Below, one piece after another: positions 628-7,609 of a stretch of 62,562 nucleotides of DNA. The stretch comes from a virus: the UHGV virus genome UHGV-0106067. One strand, 5' to 3'. The first letter of the stretch is position 1; every line of letters begins with the position of its first letter. The position numbers and the translations under genes were made by a program. Below the pieces are notes generated by a model, which was given only the letters and a program-made list of their open reading frames with translations, searched no databases and was not told where the DNA came from.

Positions 628-2601
628 TTATGCTGCTACGGCATTCACACCAACAGTAAGACTTTCAATCAGCACAGGGTAAGTTGCCGCATTTCCGGTA
701 ATATCCGTAATTGCCAGCGCGTTGGCCTCAAAGGCTGCATTCGTCCATCTGGTCAGCGTAAACGGTTTTCCTGCTGCATTATCAAGCACCGGCGTGACGT
801 TCAGCGAGCCACCACCCGGGAAGCGGAAAGTCAGCGTGTGCCAGTCGTGATCGAACGGACCATAACTACCAAGCCGCTGTGATGTGGTGTTTGCATGATA
901 CATCACATTGATGTTTGTTTTATCAGTCTGCAGATAGAAGGCCGCAATATAACCCTCCTCTGATTCCGCTCCCGGCCATCCACTACCGCGCCAGTAAATA
1001 CCCGCAGAATATTGATTTGCAGAAGCATTGAGAGATACATCATCGGGGATTTTAAAGCGCAGCGTGATTTCACCGCCGTTATCGAACAGCTCCTTCCCCT
1101 TACCGGCATCAATTGCGTGCGATACTTTCCAGGTCTTTTTCTGTGCAAGACCATTTTCTGGTTTTTCAAGACGAAGGGCTTTTTTACCTGAACCACTGTC
1201 ACTGACCAGCGTGTTTTTGACATCTGTCAGCGTCCAGCCCTGCGAAGCCAGAGCGGCATTTTCCGCATTCACATCATAAGCCAGCACTGACTGTATCTTT
1301 GTCGGGACAACGGCTTCAGGCTGAGTATCGCCACTCTCCTGTGCTGGTTGCGATACGCCTCCGCCTGAAGAAACCGCGGCTTTTGTCACTTTCCCGGAAA
1401 CAAAATCTGCCACTCTGCCCACATGCAGAAGAATGGCTGTTGCCAGACGGTCGGAAATAATTCCGCGACGCGCCCATGAACCAAAGTGGGTTTTACGATC
1501 GGATGTTGTCCAGCTCTTCGCATCCGTTCGTCCACCGGAACCATAATACCCGATAGCCGGAATATCCGGGTCTTCTGACGGTTCATTGGTCCCGACTTTC
1601 TGACCATTGTCATCCATCATAAACGGCACAAAGAAGATATTTTTACCGGCTTTGGTTTTGTATGCGCCATAGACGGCATCGTATTGCGCTGAATACGTCT
1701 CCTTCCAGTAGTACGTCGTGTCACCACAAATCCAGGGCACCAGAGAAGGAGAAGCACCAGCGCACTGACCGGATACTCCCGCCAGGTCAGAACGGTATTT
1801 TTCCACCATGGCATCAAACATGGCGGGCTGACTGGCGTACGCTCCCTGTTTTAAATCAAACTCGCCCTGCATCCAGACAACACAAAGCAGTATGTTTTTG
1901 GGGTTTGCCTTCAGCGCGACCTGAGTGCGTGTCAGCAGGTCTTTATACAACGGCTTATCAACGCCCCATCGTTCAGATTTATCCGACGCTCCTGAACTTT
2001 CACTGAACGTTCCGTCAGCACCGGCTGTAAACGCAGAGCCACCACGACAGCACGGCACTAACAAAATACCCGCATTTTCCGGCATAAAGGGCAACAGCTT
2101 TTTGGCAATATGCAATCCCTGTCCGACACACCCATACTGCTCTGCGCTGGCTTTCGGATGAGAAAAACGGCTCAAATCCTGCACATCATGCAGGCAGTGG
2201 TCCGCCGGAATGATGTCGTTATATGCACAGGCCGCACCACCCGGTGTCACCGTACTGCGACGCGCCAGCTGTTTAATACGCGGGTCCGGACGGTCATATG
2301 TCTCCGGCAGCGGCAGGCCTTCACCATACGCCATGCCGTTTGACTGTCCGGCCAGCGCAATGACAAAGTAATATTCTGGTTCAACAACAACAGTCCGGGT
2401 ACCATCTCCCCCCGGTGAAACTACCGGAGAGGTCATATCCCCTTCAGCGACTATAGCCTGGATAAATTCAGCACCATAACCCGCGTTTGAGATAATCGGA
2501 CTACCATAGGGTTGCCAGCCTTCCTTCAGTTTTTGCGTCAGTTTTCCTGCGAGGTCTGACGGCGATGATGCCCTGACCACATCATAATGTTTAAATGCCA
2601 T
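628..2601 (-). CDS. nanS-p: Prophage-type sialate O-acetylesterase NanS-p (DUF1737 N-domain + SASA/SGNH esterase + C-terminal lectin-like domain)
   Basis: N-terminus MAFKHYDVVRASSPSDLAGKLTQKLKEGWQP is DUF1737-like. Catalytic GQSN motif (ALAGQSNGMAYGEG). 657 aa, SD GGGAGGA. Confidence 0.85.
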   Translation of the reverse strand: MAFKHYDVVRASSPSDLAGKLTQKLKEGWQPYGSPIISNAGYGAEFIQAIVAEGDMTSPVVSPGGDGTRTVVVEPEYYFVIALAGQSNGMAYGEGLPLPETYDRPDPRIKQLARRSTVTPGGAACAYNDIIPADHCLHDVQDLSRFSHPKASAEQYGCVGQGLHIAKKLLPFMPENAGILLVPCCRGGSAFTAGADGTFSESSGASDKSERWGVDKPLYKDLLTRTQVALKANPKNILLCVVWMQGEFDLKQGAYASQPAMFDAMVEKYRSDLAGVSGQCAGASPSLVPWICGDTTYYWKETYSAQYDAVYGAYKTKAGKNIFFVPFMMDDNGQKVGTNEPSEDPDIPAIGYYGSGGRTDAKSWTTSDRKTHFGSWARRGIISDRLATAILLHVGRVADFVSGKVTKAAVSSGGGVSQPAQESGDTQPEAVVPTKIQSVLAYDVNAENAALASQGWTLTDVKNTLVSDSGSGKKALRLEKPENGLAQKKTWKVSHAIDAGKGKELFDNGGEITLRFKIPDDVSLNASANQYSAGIYWRGSGWPGAESEEGYIAAFYLQTDKTNINVMYHANTTSQRLGSYGPFDHDWHTLTFRFPGGGSLNVTPVLDNAAGKPFTLTRWTNAAFEANALAITDITGNAATYPVLIESLTVGVNAVAA

Positions 2602-2737: not shown

Positions 2738-2809
2738 GGTGAATAATCGAAACTCACTTTCTTTGTTTTATTCCTTGCCGCTCGCGCCTCCCGGCGCGGG
2801 CTTTTTTTG
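2738..2809 (+). ncRNA. Candidate ~70-nt Hfq-type sRNA divergent from nanS-p
   Basis: -35 TTGCGC (2702-2707), 18-nt spacer, -10 TATTAT (2726-2731). U-rich body. Strong intrinsic terminator CGCGCC-tccc-GGCGCG plus T7 (2778-2809). No ORF. Confidence 0.4.
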
Positions 2810-2811
2810 CA

Positions 2812-2840
2812 TGTAAAAAGGCCCCTGCGATGAGGGGCCT
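2812..2840 (-). terminator. Intrinsic terminator, convergent with the plus-strand terminator at 2778-2809
   Basis: Minus strand reads GGCCCCT-catcgc-AGGGGCC followed by TTTTTAC. Confidence 0.6.
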
Positions 2841-3211
2841 GAGAGTATTACCTGGTTTCAGTTAACTGCATAGTGCCGGGTGCCTCCCGGTGAGTTCAGC
2901 CCGGTGCCACCGAACCCGCGTCTTTCACATTGCCTGTGACATTAAAAATGCCAGCCCGCACCAGCCGCCCCGCCGCTGAGGGGGATTCACCATGCGTTGC
3001 GATTTTTAACAAATTCACCGCCAGCCAGACAATCATCAACTTGCTGAATTGTGAGGTATTTAAAAATTTCCCCGATTAACTGATACCCTGCTAACCACCT
3101 GTTGTTTTCTTTTTCAGCAACAAAAAAGCCCGCTCATCGGCGGATTCGGCTGCGTGGCAATGTAACCATTCTTATCATGATATGAGGATTTTTACGATTG
3201 TAAAATGTTTT

Positions 3212-4306
3212 TTAACTGACACCAGAATCATCATAACCGCGACTTGTTATAGCTTGCCTGTATGCGTTCATTTTGCGTTCTGCGTACTGGACAACATCTT
3301 TAATGACAAGCTTATGAACAACTGAAATAAGGTCATTTATATAACAAAAGTCAGGTGACTTATTTTTCACTGGCAACCAAATAACATCGTTCTTAATTTT
3401 TCTATTACTAACACTATCCCCCCATGAATATTTATGTGAAATAGACCTATAAATACATGAAATAATGCCCAAATAAGCAAACTTTGTCCTTCCATCCTCA
3501 TTGTTAACATAGAGTCGCAAATTATGACTGTCGTTTGAAAAAAAGTCTCGCTCCTGATAAGTTACAACGAATGTCTTACCACCAATAAAAATACAGTTCC
3601 CTTTTTCCAAGAGTGAGTCATCATAGGCGATATAAGAACTAACAGAGTTATTATCACGGCTAGCACAAAGATAAGGAACATCCCCACTATTTTCTATGAT
3701 GTCTCTAGACAATATGTTTCCTGTATTGCACACTGAGAATAACTCAGTAACAGGAAAGCCTGAAAATTCAATATTTTTAAAATGTTCCAGGATAAGATAA
3801 TCTTTTTCCGTTAGTTGGTAATCACTCAGCCCAGCAGCTATCAGGTATGCTTCCAGCTCTTCTATATGGGCCGCTTCCAGCTCTTCTATATAATTATCCA
3901 TAAAAAACCAGTCAATTTCATTATTTTTCACTGGTAATGAGATGAAATATTCTCCATCTCTGAGTTTGGAACTCGATAACTGTTGACCATAATTAAAACG
4001 CCCCTTTAAAGCTTTATTAATCATACTGGCAACATACAGTCCGCGCTTTGCATTAAAGTCGGACTTACTTGATTTTAATGTAAGAACATGCACCTTCATT
4101 TCTACGCTGGCACAATAAGGATGATAAAAAGCATCTCCAAAAAAATTAACGCTTATAAAATTTTCATAATGTCTTGCATCATCCATAAACTCGGTATCAA
4201 ACTCTCCGATGATACCGTTTTGATCGCTCTTTGCTGAAACACGTTTGATTTTGCCTGGTTTTAATCTTCCTGAGGAGATAAGCGAGCCTGTGCTCACATA
4301 GAACAA
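3212..4306 (-). CDS. RM specificity subunit (HsdS/BcgIB-like, two target-recognition domains)
   Basis: 364 aa. Two variable halves separated by a helical spacer (NYIEELEAAHIEELEAYL). N-terminal WGEFRIGDLF-type motif lies just upstream of the TTG start, so the start is uncertain. Immediately follows the MTase gene. Confidence 0.7.
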   Translation of the reverse strand: MFYVSTGSLISSGRLKPGKIKRVSAKSDQNGIIGEFDTEFMDDARHYENFISVNFFGDAFYHPYCASVEMKVHVLTLKSSKSDFNAKRGLYVASMINKALKGRFNYGQQLSSSKLRDGEYFISLPVKNNEIDWFFMDNYIEELEAAHIEELEAYLIAAGLSDYQLTEKDYLILEHFKNIEFSGFPVTELFSVCNTGNILSRDIIENSGDVPYLCASRDNNSVSSYIAYDDSLLEKGNCIFIGGKTFVVTYQERDFFSNDSHNLRLYVNNEDGRTKFAYLGIISCIYRSISHKYSWGDSVSNRKIKNDVIWLPVKNKSPDFCYINDLISVVHKLVIKDVVQYAERKMNAYRQAITSRGYDDSGVS

Positions 4307-4365
4307 ATCGCCAATCCTGAACTCTCCCCACTCAACGCTTCTTAATTTATCGCTGAGCGGGGAAT

Positions 4366-6327
4366 TTACTTTCCCGCAAAATTGTTTTCACCTTGTTTTT
4401 TCAGTAATTGCGAGACCTCCCATGCAAGGTAATCACCTACCGTCTTTTTGAAATCCTCCAGCGTTGGCCTAGCATCTACTGGCCTGGTCTGATTCCAGTC
4501 CTCACCACTATCAGGATCGATTGTTCCCTCAAAATATTCATCCTCCGTAAAGATATTAAGGCAACCTTTCCCGAAGTGAACCAGATCCACAACCTCCTGA
4601 TAACGCTCTTTTGCACGATCGGCATCAACAAGATTGTTTCTTGCCTTTTTGCGATTAGAGCGAGCGTAGCCGTCATTGGAAAAGTCGATAAACTTAACAG
4701 CCTGTTTCGCGTTATGCGGAATTTTTACCTGAAAAACGTAAATGTACGTCTGAACGCTTGATTTACCAATAAACAGATCCGCAGGCATTTTGATGCTTGC
4801 CAGCAAGGTATTTTCCTTGAGTATTTTTTTGTTGTACTCCGTAGCCTTTCCTGTGCCAGCTGAACTCTGGATAATCACTGCAGCATAGCCTTTATCCATC
4901 ATCGACAGCGCCTTCTGCACGAAAATCATGCCGTTACCTTTAGCTGAATACGGAGGATTGAGAATAAATGCGTCCGCAGGGAATTTTTCTCCTGTTTTCC
5001 CAAATCCATACTTGCCGTCAAAATCGGCCAGCGAGTCTTTATTGAGGATATTCGAGCTACCATCCCCCATCAAAATCATATTCAGGATGGCCAGCATATA
5101 AATACTGGATAACACCTCAAGGCCAAGAAGCTGTTCAGCCTTGATTTGCGCTTCCTTAAGTTGTAGTTCGTTCGGTGAGTGAATATTTTCTCTGGCGTCA
5201 ATGAGCATTTCATTCATTGCAGCCACAAGCAATCCCGCAGAACCTGTAGCAAAATCCCACACATAGGAATCTTTGTTTACTCTGGCGAGTCGTGCCAGCA
5301 ATGTGGCAACATAAGGTGGTGTCAGAACGACGTCATTGAGCTTGTCCTGCGTAAATCCAAGCCAGCGATACATCTCATTAAACAGTTTGCCCGTAAAATC
5401 GGTGGTCAGTCCAATTTTGTAATACTCCCCAAGATCATCAACAACTTTAACAAACACGCGCTTTAACTGGCTTTCACCGTTGACTGGTTTGTTAATGTTT
5501 TCAGTCCACAGCGTATTTTGCAACGAGCGCAAAATCATTTCTCTTTTTGTTTCAGGAACAGCTTTCAGCCTTAAAAAGTTCCTTATTTTCCTGAAAATAA
5601 TATCACCATCACGCAAGTCCTCCTCCGTTGAAGAGGTCAGTTCTTTTTTATCCAGCGGTGCTAACTTTCCCGGAATCCCCAACGTTGCAATAACGGTAGC
5701 CACAACAAGGTAAACACGATCGCTTTCACCAAGCCCCTTTTCATTCTGGTAAATATCGTTATTCAGACGGGAAAGTCGCGTGTCTATCTCTTCCTCTTTG
5801 CTGGCCTTGATTTTTTCCAGTTCTTCGGGAGGAAGATTAAGCAGCTTTATCTTGTTGAGAAATCCATCAACATTTTTGTCAGCAAGGAACGATAAGTCGG
5901 TGAATTCACCAACCTTCTGTCCGGCTCCTAAATTATTCTTTGATACGTACCACACGCCGATTTCATGATGCAGTTCGCCTGTACCATCATCGCGCCAGCC
6001 GGTCATACCAATAGCAATAATATCAGGGTAATTGGTGAACTGAAGAAGTGCGTTGGCATAATGGACTGCGCCATTCACCGCGTATCCATTAATATTTTTA
6101 AAATTCCATTCTTTTCTGGCATCTTTGTTCTCAATAATACCGTTGCTGCCAAGTCTGATAAGCCTGTCCTTGTAGCCTTTATACTCGATGAGAACGGGAT
6201 ACTGCTTGCCGTATTTGTCCTTAACAAGGAGTTTTACGTCGGGACGATTACCGCCTGCGCCGCCATTTTTCGAAAAATAAGCGTCCAGTGCGTTATCGAT
6301 CTCTCCGTTAAGTGATGCATTCTGCAA
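4366..6327 (-). CDS. Fused PD-ExK endonuclease / N6-adenine DNA methyltransferase (type IIB BcgIA-like). The listed ORF begins at an internal TTG. The SD-ATG at 6461 is out of frame because of the heptamer tract.
   Basis: MTase motif I VWDFATGSAGLL and motif IV NPPY (FILNPPYSAKG). N-terminal RPD...17 aa...IEYK nuclease motif. The frame stays open upstream through the repeat. Confidence 0.8.
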   Translation of the reverse strand: MQNASLNGEIDNALDAYFSKNGGAGGNRPDVKLLVKDKYGKQYPVLIEYKGYKDRLIRLGSNGIIENKDARKEWNFKNINGYAVNGAVHYANALLQFTNYPDIIAIGMTGWRDDGTGELHHEIGVWYVSKNNLGAGQKVGEFTDLSFLADKNVDGFLNKIKLLNLPPEELEKIKASKEEEIDTRLSRLNNDIYQNEKGLGESDRVYLVVATVIATLGIPGKLAPLDKKELTSSTEEDLRDGDIIFRKIRNFLRLKAVPETKREMILRSLQNTLWTENINKPVNGESQLKRVFVKVVDDLGEYYKIGLTTDFTGKLFNEMYRWLGFTQDKLNDVVLTPPYVATLLARLARVNKDSYVWDFATGSAGLLVAAMNEMLIDARENIHSPNELQLKEAQIKAEQLLGLEVLSSIYMLAILNMILMGDGSSNILNKDSLADFDGKYGFGKTGEKFPADAFILNPPYSAKGNGMIFVQKALSMMDKGYAAVIIQSSAGTGKATEYNKKILKENTLLASIKMPADLFIGKSSVQTYIYVFQVKIPHNAKQAVKFIDFSNDGYARSNRKKARNNLVDADRAKERYQEVVDLVHFGKGCLNIFTEDEYFEGTIDPDSGEDWNQTRPVDARPTLEDFKKTVGDYLAWEVSQLLKKQGENNFAGK

Positions 6328-6417
6328 CTTGTAATCAAGCCTGTAAGATTTAAGCCATGAGTTCGCCAGTTCGGTAATTTCCGGCTCAACAGATTTTACA
6401 GACTTTCTTGATTTACT

Positions 6418-6452
6418 GCTGGTCGCTGGTCGCTGGTCGCTGGTCGCTGGTC
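6418..6452 (-). repeat. Heptanucleotide tandem repeat (GACCAGC)x5 in the 5' coding end of the RM gene
   Basis: Five perfect copies of gctggtc on the plus strand at 6418-6452. They lie 9 nt downstream of ATG 6461 (SD AAGGA). Confidence 0.95.
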
Positions 6453-6635
6453 TGGCAGCATAAAATCATCCTTTTATGAAAATCAACGATTTTTGAGCAC
6501 TCGCACACAAAAAATTACCGCATTGGTTGCAACGACAACCTGCATTTTGCGGAGCATATGACAAATAAAGTACGGGTGCGTTGAGGATGCCAGACACATC
6601 AGAGGTGGCGGGAGATTACTCCCCTGCCTGGTCTC

Positions 6636-6791
6636 TTACTTCTCAGATTCGTAGTCTACGAAGACAGCGACCTCCGTCTGGCCGGTTCGGATTCGTACCT
6701 CGCAGAAGTCTTTCCTCGTTACCAGTGCTATCACTACGACGGTAATACAGATGACGATCAGGGCGATTAACATCGCCTTTTGCTGCTTCAT
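6636..6791 (-). CDS. hok: Hok/Gef-family type I toxin (HokD/RelF-like)
   Basis: Translated by hand: MKQQKAMLIALIVICITVVVIALVTRKDFCEVRIRTGQTEVAVFVDYESEK (51 aa). Below the ORF-track cutoff. SD AAGGAG. Confidence 0.9.
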   Translation of the reverse strand: MKQQKAMLIALIVICITVVVIALVTRKDFCEVRIRTGQTEVAVFVDYESEK

Positions 6792-6975
6792 AGCCTACTT
6801 CTCCTTGCCTTTCGGCACGTAAGAGGCTAACCTAAGTTTGTAAGTCATAGATTTGGCCTCAGATTAATGTTAAGCGTCCTGCAAGACGCGTAATGTTAAC
6901 TGGGGCTTTTCTCTGTCTGCCTTACGGCTGCATGCCCGAGGCAGACAGCCTCAAGCACCCGCAGCTATTCTACAG
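6792..6975 (-). promoter_or_regulatory. hok mRNA leader with a mok-like upstream ORF and the expected Sok antisense region; candidate -10 TAGAAT
   Basis: The leader matches the remembered R1 hok leader blocks (GCTTGAGGCTnTCTGCCTC, GGCAGAnAGA, AGCCCC, TAGCCTCTTAC, GCAAGGAGAAG). uORF ATGACTTAC...AAGTAG ends just upstream of the hok ATG (TAG-GCT-ATG). Confidence 0.6.
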
Positions 6976-6990
6976 TAAAAACTCGCGCTT

Positions 6991-7416
6991 TCAATTTCCC
7001 GCACGTCCGGCAAACTGACTGGCCTGTGATCCTGATGGTTCACGCTCAACGTACCTGTCCATTTCCAGCTTTACTCCCTGCATGATCAACATCCCCTCAA
7101 TAACACCTTCTGCTTTTTGCAGTACCCGCCCGGCCCAGCAATCAGAGCGCCCATGCTTACGGCCCAGTGACATAAGCGTCATCCCGAACACATAATAATC
7201 ATACAGAAAATCATGCAAATCGCTGTTGTTGACGTTCAGTTGCGCCATGCAATTGCTGATAATCAGCGCATCGTCATCGGTACACTGAGGCCGTGATTTA
7301 ACCTTTGACGGGATCAGCCCCTTAAATCCGGCGGCAATGGGCGACCAGCTCACATCCTCATGATTATTGGCCACCCATGCGCCCCAGCGTTCAAGCACCT
7401 GCTGAATATCACGCAT
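6991..7416 (-). CDS. Q: Late-gene antiterminator Q (phage 21/933W Q family)
   Basis: [24 protein letters not shown]... matches the remembered Q21-type N-terminus. The start was moved to M36 of the listed ORF. Overlaps the ninH stop. Confidence 0.85.
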
Positions 7417-7609
7417 CAGAGTCTTTACCCTTATCCCATCCACGATGGACCATAAGGACACCGTTGACGACGGCGTGCCGTTTGCCTTCTTTATCGCCAA
7501 TATATTTTCTGACCGTGGCACGATTACAGTTCAGTATTCGGGCCACCTCGGTCTGATTTCCATATGCCTCAACAAGCATGTCAGGAATGATTTTTACGGT
7601 GAACGTCAT
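7409..7609 (-). CDS. ninH: NinH
   Basis: [36 protein letters not shown]... is close to lambda NinH. Confidence 0.85.

Follow-up and report, generated by a model that had tools for sequence, protein, structure and literature searches.

The hok/sok locus and its RNA elements

The window, by which we mean the whole 62,562-nucleotide stretch of virus genome UHGV-0106067 analysed here, carries a complete hok/sok-type locus on its minus strand (6994..~6565), comprising a promoter, a 169-nt leader, a 51-aa Hok, a post-stop hairpin and an fbi element. The hok toxin gene (6636..6791, minus strand) is a small hydrophobic ORF of the ~50 aa expected for Hok/Gef proteins. It was identified by its match to Pfam HOK_GEF (PF01848; 77.2 bits, cut-off 22, E = 7e-22) and by its identity to HokW, with which it shares 47 of 51 residues. 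Identity to the HokD/RelF type is lower (45/51), and the HokD/RelF-like label that a sequence-only reading had attached to the protein was dropped for HokW-type, since HokD-type loci lack the leader described below. PADLOC holds no model matching Hok, and absence from its results is uninformative for this gene.

Upstream of the toxin, 175 nt of leader (6960..6786, minus strand) match Rfam RF01794 ('sok') over the whole model and on the hok strand (118.4 bits, gathering score 59, E = 2e-26). Together with the adjoining antiterminator gene Q, the Pfam and Rfam matches bear out the earlier proposal of a canonical hok/mok/sok locus directly downstream of Q, for which an Rfam search had been suggested as a check. 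The R1 leader blocks on which that proposal was built (GCTTGAGGCTnTCTGCC, GGCAGAnAGA, TAGCCTCTTAC, and GCAAGGAGAAG leading to the ATG) all lie in register with those of IncFII R1-type hok and 933W hokW. It had placed the locus at 6636-6975, which is where the locus lies but which misses the promoter -35 (to 6994) and the 3' UTR (to ~6565). Because the Rfam model describes the hok-sense leader, the match proves homology of the leader and not, by itself, the presence of an antisense gene; even at permissive Rfam thresholds, nothing beyond a 'sok' match of 16 bits and a spurious snoRNA match turned up on the plus strand. RF01794 bears the name 'sok antitoxin', yet what it models is the hok-sense leader as far as the hok AUG (window 6786-6960), and automatic annotation with it would put 'sok' on the wrong strand. 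Sok (RF01794) matches near prophage sRNAs have been noted previously.

Over a stretch that begins with the -10 hexamer TAGAAT and ends just beyond the fbi block CCUCAACGCACCC, the locus aligns gap-free with the annotated hokW/mokW/sokW of 933W / Sakai Sp5 at 91.4% nucleotide identity. It is 99.8-100% identical in phage PhiR12_3 (ECOR13) and 16 complete E. coli genomes, where the ORF is labelled 'Hok/Gef family protein' or 'host killer protein' beside 'antiterminator Q'; a protein identical to the window Hok bears the RefSeq name 'Hok/Gef family protein'. This is a real, ordinary hok/sok toxin-antitoxin locus of the hokW subfamily and a close relative of the Shiga-toxin phage hokW-sokW, a new member or allele of a known family in a slightly unusual genomic slot. 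The match of its predicted elements to hok/sok is far above chance, and among the features of the family that can be read from sequence only the mok/hok overlap appears to be missing. Membership in the family, the intact elements, their conservation and the genomic context were shown from the sequence, and the fold was shown in silico. Hok is enriched in prophages, 9.3% of Escherichia phages encoding one, according to a survey that deliberately excluded Mok, Sok and position within the phage (bioRxiv 10.1101/2025.08.07.668861). The number of places matching per E. coli genome has a median of 2 and reaches 9.

A sigma-70 consensus scan predicts the hok promoter at 6967..6994 (minus strand; TTGAAA-16-TAGAAT, 10/12), the sole strong match on that strand in 6300-7200. 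The Q stop codon TGA (6993..6991) falls within its -35 hexamer, and its -10 hexamer TAGAAT is shared with 933W hokW, the homology starting there. An identical promoter, also on the Q stop, is found in the diverged relative L044. The predicted full-length hok mRNA of ~396 nt (6565..6960, minus strand) would extend from GGGUGCUUGAGG to just beyond fbi and CUUUAU; its 5' end was placed by the start of the Rfam model, and homology to 933W stops just past fbi. The MFE fold of this RNA (-152.5 kcal/mol, z = -5.1), indicative only at lengths of 360-400 nt, joins the 5' end to the 3' end by pairing. In this predicted fold the tac element at the mRNA 5' end (GGGUGCUUGAGG, 6949..6960, minus strand) forms a 12-bp helix with the fbi element (6574..6586, minus strand), to which it is complementary save for one bulged C (6960..6949 with 6586..6574). 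The model thus upholds the earlier expectation that the leader is able to form the tac/fbi pairing. When fbi is removed, the 5' end is predicted to refold locally into another hairpin; a switch of this kind is what the R1 model calls for (PMC9841398).

Conservation was assessed on 43 non-redundant homologues out of 80 IMG/VR loci. The tac-fbi helix is 99.8% paired across them; the sole variable fbi nucleotide is the predicted bulge (C, T or A), and one locus (L034) has a tac variant without a compensating change. As the helix is nearly invariant within the hokW subfamily, covariation cannot independently prove it there. An R1-type IncFII plasmid has other tac and fbi sequences and retains their complementarity. 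Over the structure as a whole 93% of cells are paired, and 53 are changed on both sides, where shuffles give 21.7 +/- 6.9 and slid controls no more than 13. Three hairpins hold the compensatory pairs, namely the 5' hairpin, where A-U becomes G-C in 19 sequences, the Sok-target hairpin and the post-stop hairpin.

The post-stop stem-loop, GGCAGGGGAG-UAAU-CUCCCGCC (6607..6628, minus strand; helix 18), has three pairs changed on both sides and is 98% paired. Earlier it had been taken for a 3' fold-back hairpin at 6600-6632. The hairpin is real, as its compensatory changes attest, but it closes on itself and is not the fold-back element; the mRNA 5' end pairs instead with the true fbi at 6586..6574. 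Given this pairing of tac with fbi, ~20 nt further 3', the stem-loop probably stabilizes the 3' end of the truncated mRNA or marks where its processing stops. In R1, truncated hok mRNA loses stability when its last 3' stem-loop is mutated (PMC9841398).

On the plus strand, convergent with hok, a candidate sok promoter can be read from the sequence (TTGCCT-17-TAACCT, 6805..6833). It scores under the threshold of the sigma-70 consensus scan, and both its hexamers fall within invariant or nearly invariant blocks of the 43 homologues. Coordinates transferred from the sokW annotation (AF125520) predict a Sok antisense RNA of ~71 nt (6840..6911, plus strand), with a ~15-nt single-stranded 5' tail over the mok start, a long hairpin that includes three compensatory pairs, and a CUUUUCU tail (z = -5.2). 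The positions of predicted RNA and promoter agree with those of the annotated, Northern-detected sokW. The sequence-only reading had anticipated a Sok-like RNA of about 60-70 nt on this strand, and one of ~71 nt is indeed predicted, at 6840-6911 and not at 6800-6890.

The mok frame and its nonsense codon

The mok Shine-Dalgarno GAGG (6857..6860, minus strand) stands 8 nt 5' of the mok ATG, within the region that the predicted Sok would cover, and is invariant in both homologue alignments (A4 and A5). From the ATG at 6848, which that Sok would cover as well, the shortened mok ORF (MTYKLRLASYVPKGKEK, 6795..6848, minus strand) comprises the start and 16 further sense codons, 17 in total, before a TAG (6797..6795); a single GCT then precedes the hok ATG. 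The frame therefore crosses the hok SD (GGAG, 6804..6801) into the initiation region of hok, and its stop falls 3 nt short of the hok start. Mok does not overlap the hok coding sequence, its TAG lying two codons before the hok ATG. Such an overlap is typical (R1, hokW, hokC), and we do not count it as defining, mok being dispensable beyond the hok start in R1. The translation confirms what had been said of the mok-equivalent uORF, namely that it ends just upstream of hok; the position of the stop was right, and its status as a derived nonsense allele had been missed.

In 933W and the IncFII plasmid the same frame continues into hok as an in-frame N-terminal extension. The codon in question is CAG in the 72 other hok loci examined, all with an intact mok in frame with hok. 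TAG was found only in the near-identical clade of the window, which includes E2855, PhiR12_3 and four further loci (L005, L006, L008 and L009), and within it the allele is unchanged across 16 complete genomes and one induced phage. On this distribution the TAG is a derived C-to-T nonsense change (CAG to TAG), not an alternative design.

In R1, mok translation is mandatory 'at least up to the hok SD' and dispensable beyond the hok start, and Hok is lost when a premature stop ends mok ahead of that start (PMC9841398). The geometry found here, with a stop after the SD and 3 nt before the ATG, favours termination-reinitiation as the predicted mode of coupling. Since mok translation still traverses the whole hok SD, we judge that coupling has survived the TAG by this route, and hold this to be somewhat the likelier outcome. 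The natural allele sits in an interval, after the hok SD and before the ATG, that R1 mutagenesis apparently left untested, and it could settle how near to hok the mok ribosome must travel.

Two members of the TAG clade in IMG/VR (L008, ~3001-3153; L009, ~2434-2586) carry an extra nonsense codon at hok codon 4, where CAA has become TAA and the product would be MKQ*. These stops suggest relaxed selection or selection against Hok, and that Hok may be in the course of being lost in part of the lineage. A separate observation concerns the five codons that follow the mok ATG (6833-6845, minus strand; columns ~146-160 of alignment A4), which are hypervariable, with at least 10 variants among the 43 homologues, in loci that are otherwise highly conserved. 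This segment faces the predicted single-stranded 5' tail of Sok, and its variability fits the idea that co-resident copies have diverged in Sok specificity.

The interval between Q and pR'

On the minus strand the locus has NinG, NinH and Q as neighbours. Antiterminator Q (6991..7416, minus strand) has 141 aa according to RefSeq, the longest ORF starting from a GTG at 7521; it matches Pfam Phage_antitermQ at 161 bits and, distantly, the Q21 structures. It is ~81% nucleotide-identical to Q of the Stx2a phage P13374 up to window position 7039, its last 16 codons being divergent, and it forms the upstream boundary of a cassette. The cassette was joined by recombination within the Q frame (6991-7039, minus strand), which gives Q a new C-terminal tail. 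Between Q and the late promoter-terminator unit lie hok/sok, a heptamer repeat, and the two genes of a BcgI-like type IIG/IIB restriction-modification (R-M) pair (3212..6327, minus strand). The latter consist of a REase-MTase of 653 aa (6327..4366; PADLOC REase_MTase_IIG, 757 bits) and a specificity subunit of 364 aa (4306..3212; PADLOC Specificity_II), with the Pfam domains N6_Mtase and Methylase_S.

The repeat is a perfect tandem array of the heptamer GACCAGC (gene strand) at 6418-6452, ~90 nt upstream of the R-M start codon. There are 5 copies in the window, 31 in E2855 (L002, 6549-6765) and 83 in PhiR12_3 (L003, 6549-7129), all of them 100% perfect, and spurious ORFs are annotated over the array in genome records. 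It may be a spacer, subject to phase variation, within the promoter or 5' UTR of the R-M genes.

Past the R-M pair comes a displaced pR' (TTTACA-16-TATCAT, 3204..3177, minus strand; promoter score 10/12), followed by the tR' terminator (hairpin 3144..3129 and a T run, minus strand). The pR'-tR' unit (3125..3204) marks the downstream boundary of the cassette and is ~88% identical to the promoter-terminator unit that overlaps the Q stop in P13374, where TTTACG-16-TATCAT has an intrinsic terminator within ~35 nt. A pR'-tR' arrangement yielding a short transcript has been described for lambdoid and Stx phages (PMC7547250). In the window pR' sits ~3.75 kb downstream of hok, and Q and pR' are split by ~3.8 kb. 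A late promoter was sought between Q and hok, and only the hok promoter was found there; comparison of its surroundings with the P13374 pR' module showed no similarity. The hok promoter occupies the exact place that pR' holds in relatives.

The order Q-hok-R-M-pR' recurs in E2855 and PhiR12_3. In the diverged L044, whose Q is 88% identical in protein, Q is followed by the hok promoter on the Q stop, by hok with the mok CAG intact, and by a diverged N6-MTase R-M gene in the same slot. Hok/sok and R-M together make up a ~3.8 kb cassette that has entered a 933W-like (Stx-phage-type) lambdoid prophage in the interval from Q to pR'. Because L044 has Q-hok-R-M with CAG, the insertion is older than the TAG mutation. 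A normally tight Q-pR' junction can thus take a 3.8-kb hok/sok and R-M cassette, a finding relevant to cargo acquisition by Stx-type phages and to the activation of hokW-type toxins at induction.

Downstream of pR'-tR' are an STnc100-family RNA and a nanS-p-type esterase, and an endolysin and Rz lie at the other end of the window (wrapping). The STnc100-family sRNA (149 bits; 2809-3025, minus strand) stands just past tR', in the leader of the late transcript and ahead of the esterase (2601..628). No tRNA or stx genes are present around the displaced pR', STnc100 and esterase. Elsewhere in the window, Rfam matches to isrK (61 bits; 16002-16077, plus strand) and C4 antisense RNA (77 bits; 16102-16189, plus strand) adjoin on the pL side of a cI-like repressor (12321..13034), and the pair may constitute an immunity or anti-Q-type RNA module.

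This placement bears on transcription of the locus. A position downstream of pR'/qut, as in a Q-dependent late operon, was not found; being upstream of pR', the cassette would therefore be part of the early-right unit or transcribe itself, not be controlled by Q. With the pR'-tR' unit beyond both hok and R-M, Q-modified polymerases would start 3.75 kb past hok. Conversely, with the Q stop codon inside the hok -35, a polymerase that transcribes Q as part of the early-right operon cannot, by the predicted layout, avoid entering hok and meeting the sok promoter head-on.

Proposed mechanism, competing readings and known systems

We are now able to propose a mechanism, for which expression, toxicity and coupling at the window locus are inferred by homology with R1 hok/sok and hokW-sokW. 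The constitutive promoter over the Q stop codon would yield a stable ~396-nt hok mRNA, locked shut by the pairing of tac at its 5' end with fbi at its 3' end. Slow 3' trimming to the hairpin at 6607-6628 would strip fbi and let the 5' end refold, after which the mok SD and ATG would be open either to ribosomes or to the unstable, convergently transcribed Sok (~6840-6911, plus strand). Where Sok binds, mok translation would be blocked and the duplex targeted for cleavage; where ribosomes translate mok instead, they would expose the hok initiation region, and Hok would enter the inner membrane and kill the cell. In the TAG lineage the step from mok to hok would proceed by termination-reinitiation. 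Our preferred reading is therefore a working hokW-type hok/sok in a Q-pR' cassette, with coupling retained despite the mok TAG, and we give it a probability of about 0.6. By analogy with hokW, its expected roles would be prophage retention and, at induction, an aid to lysis and phage release.

Against a working locus stands the view that the allele is disabled or attenuated, the mok TAG uncoupling Hok translation or strongly cutting it, with hok and Sok RNAs made and no killing. The locus would then be a hitch-hiking remnant beside the R-M genes, comparable to the chromosomal hok loci of K-12, all five of which Pedersen and Gerdes reportedly described in 1999 as inactivated. The TAG is derived and restricted to one near-identical clade, with CAG in the 72 other loci, and the second stop, at hok codon 4, in two of its members points the same way. 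In R1, the loss-of-function mutations recovered include five stops that end mok early, ahead of the hok start, and even synonymous changes beside the hok SD abolished Hok (PMC9841398). Yet in the window mok runs past all of the hok SD and ends 3 nt short of the ATG, an arrangement that normally supports termination-reinitiation, and what the R1 authors call mandatory is only translation 'at least up to the hok SD' (PMC9841398). Both promoters, tac, fbi, the hairpins and the hok ORF are intact, moreover, and the allele persists unchanged in the 16 complete genomes and the induced phage. We consider inactivation possible, with the odds against it.

The remaining alternatives concern not whether Hok is made but what releases it. 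The sequence-only reading placed hok in the path of late transcription. On the model that this implies, hok would lie within the Q-antiterminated transcript, and read-through from pR' would flood the cell with hok mRNA, override Sok and time lysis. Hok is indeed co-oriented with Q and starts 31 nt past the Q stop, and HokW is made on prophage induction and hastens growth arrest (PMC8621323). The sole pR'-tR' counterpart (3204..3125, minus strand) lies past hok and R-M, however, and the hok promoter region does not resemble the pR' module. The effect was also measured in Sp5/933W, where a long distance separates hokW from Q and the late genes run convergently towards it, and hokW mRNA was not raised on induction (PMC8621323). 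This model is largely refuted and now has very little probability. A role in lysis or phage release as such is published for the orthologous hokW-sokW (PMC8621323); it is the late-transcription route to it that finds no support. Of the idea that read-through from Q overrides Sok, the late-transcript form likewise falls, and what survives is that the early transcript of Q unavoidably enters hok and opposes the sok promoter, read-through in the early operon being the only kind that can reach hok.

That remainder can be developed into a variant in which delayed-early transcription from pR through Q interferes with the sok promoter and supplies a 5'-extended hok RNA, so that prophage induction, and not late transcription, tips the balance to Hok. 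There is no room for a terminator between the Q stop (6991) and hok +1 (6960); the hok -35 overlaps that stop, the sok promoter faces Q transcription head-on, and the Q-hok junction is conserved in L044. In Sp5, too, sokW RNA vanishes on RecA-dependent induction (PMC8621323). But Sp5 loses its sokW with a quite different gene order, and because it shows the effect with hokW far from Q, adjacency to Q is not needed for it. The 5'-extended RNAs would, besides, still bear tac and fbi. The idea is conceivable and purely inferential, and it adds to the working-locus reading without competing with it; we regard it as unlikely. Bolder still, and to our minds a speculation with a rather slim chance, is the proposal that a mobile addiction and defence cassette split Q from pR', that read-through from Q silences sok and triggers Hok, and that the mok TAG is an adaptive retuning. 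If that were true, a plasmid-type killer would be wired into the lysis schedule of a phage, and the mok stop would represent a shift to termination-reinitiation coupling rather than decay.

The discovery value of the locus is small, given that hok/sok is a textbook type I toxin-antitoxin, that hokW-sokW has been characterized and that the exact protein is in RefSeq. What is gained is a full annotation of the RNA elements (promoters, tac, fbi, Sok and mok), which is absent from the genome records.

Among known systems the closest is hokW/mokW/sokW of 933W/Sp5 (AF125520), with which the window locus shares the leader blocks, the predicted Sok promoter and hairpin, the post-stop hairpin and the tac and fbi sequences, both loci residing in 933W-like lambdoid phages. 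hokW-sokW is a functional type I toxin-antitoxin, in which HokW is toxic and located in the inner membrane and is neutralized by sokW from its own promoter (Takada et al. 2021, PMC8621323). Upon RecA-dependent induction sokW RNA disappears and HokW appears ~1 h before endolysin; the system brings growth arrest forward by ~40 min, doubles phage yield and promotes lysis (PMC8621323). Neutralization of Hok by Sok in the window would follow by analogy with this orthologue. The 933W module lies past the tail genes and convergent with them, whereas the window locus comes directly after Q; the window hok -35 hexamer differs from that of 933W hokW and is stronger; and mokW is a 70-codon in-frame extension of hokW, whereas the TAG leaves the window mok with 17 codons. 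The target of the Sok 5' tail, formed by the five codons that follow the mok ATG, reads ATGACTTACAAACTT in the window and ATGCTGAACACATGT in 933W, which suggests that the specificity of the window Sok may differ from that of 933W SokW.

The paradigm type I system, hok/mok/sok of R1/IncFII, has the same element order and conserved blocks as the window, and the same Sok design as is predicted there. Common to both are tac, the 5' hairpin, the mok SD and ATG, TAGCCTCTTAC, GCAAGGAGAAG-ATG, the 3' hairpin, and fbi with UUUAU, and the mRNAs are of similar length (~396 nt in the window, 398 nt in R1). Hok itself is only ~40-45% identical between them, and the R1 tac and fbi differ while staying complementary. 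R1 is plasmid-borne and acts in post-segregational killing, and its mok runs across hok, whereas the window mok stops before it. hokD (relF), of the Qin prophage of E. coli K-12, resembles the window locus in its protein (45/51) and in its lambdoid prophage setting; HokD-type loci, however, are without the tac/mok/sok leader that is complete in the window, as in two loci (L057 and L081) where a HokD-type protein is preceded by unrelated sequence. Finally, the cargo of Stx phages (stx, tRNAs, nanS-p) and the window cassette both occupy the interval from Q to lysis with a pR'-tR' unit present (PMC7547250), but the Stx-phage cargo lies downstream of pR', whereas hok/sok and R-M in the window lie upstream of it.
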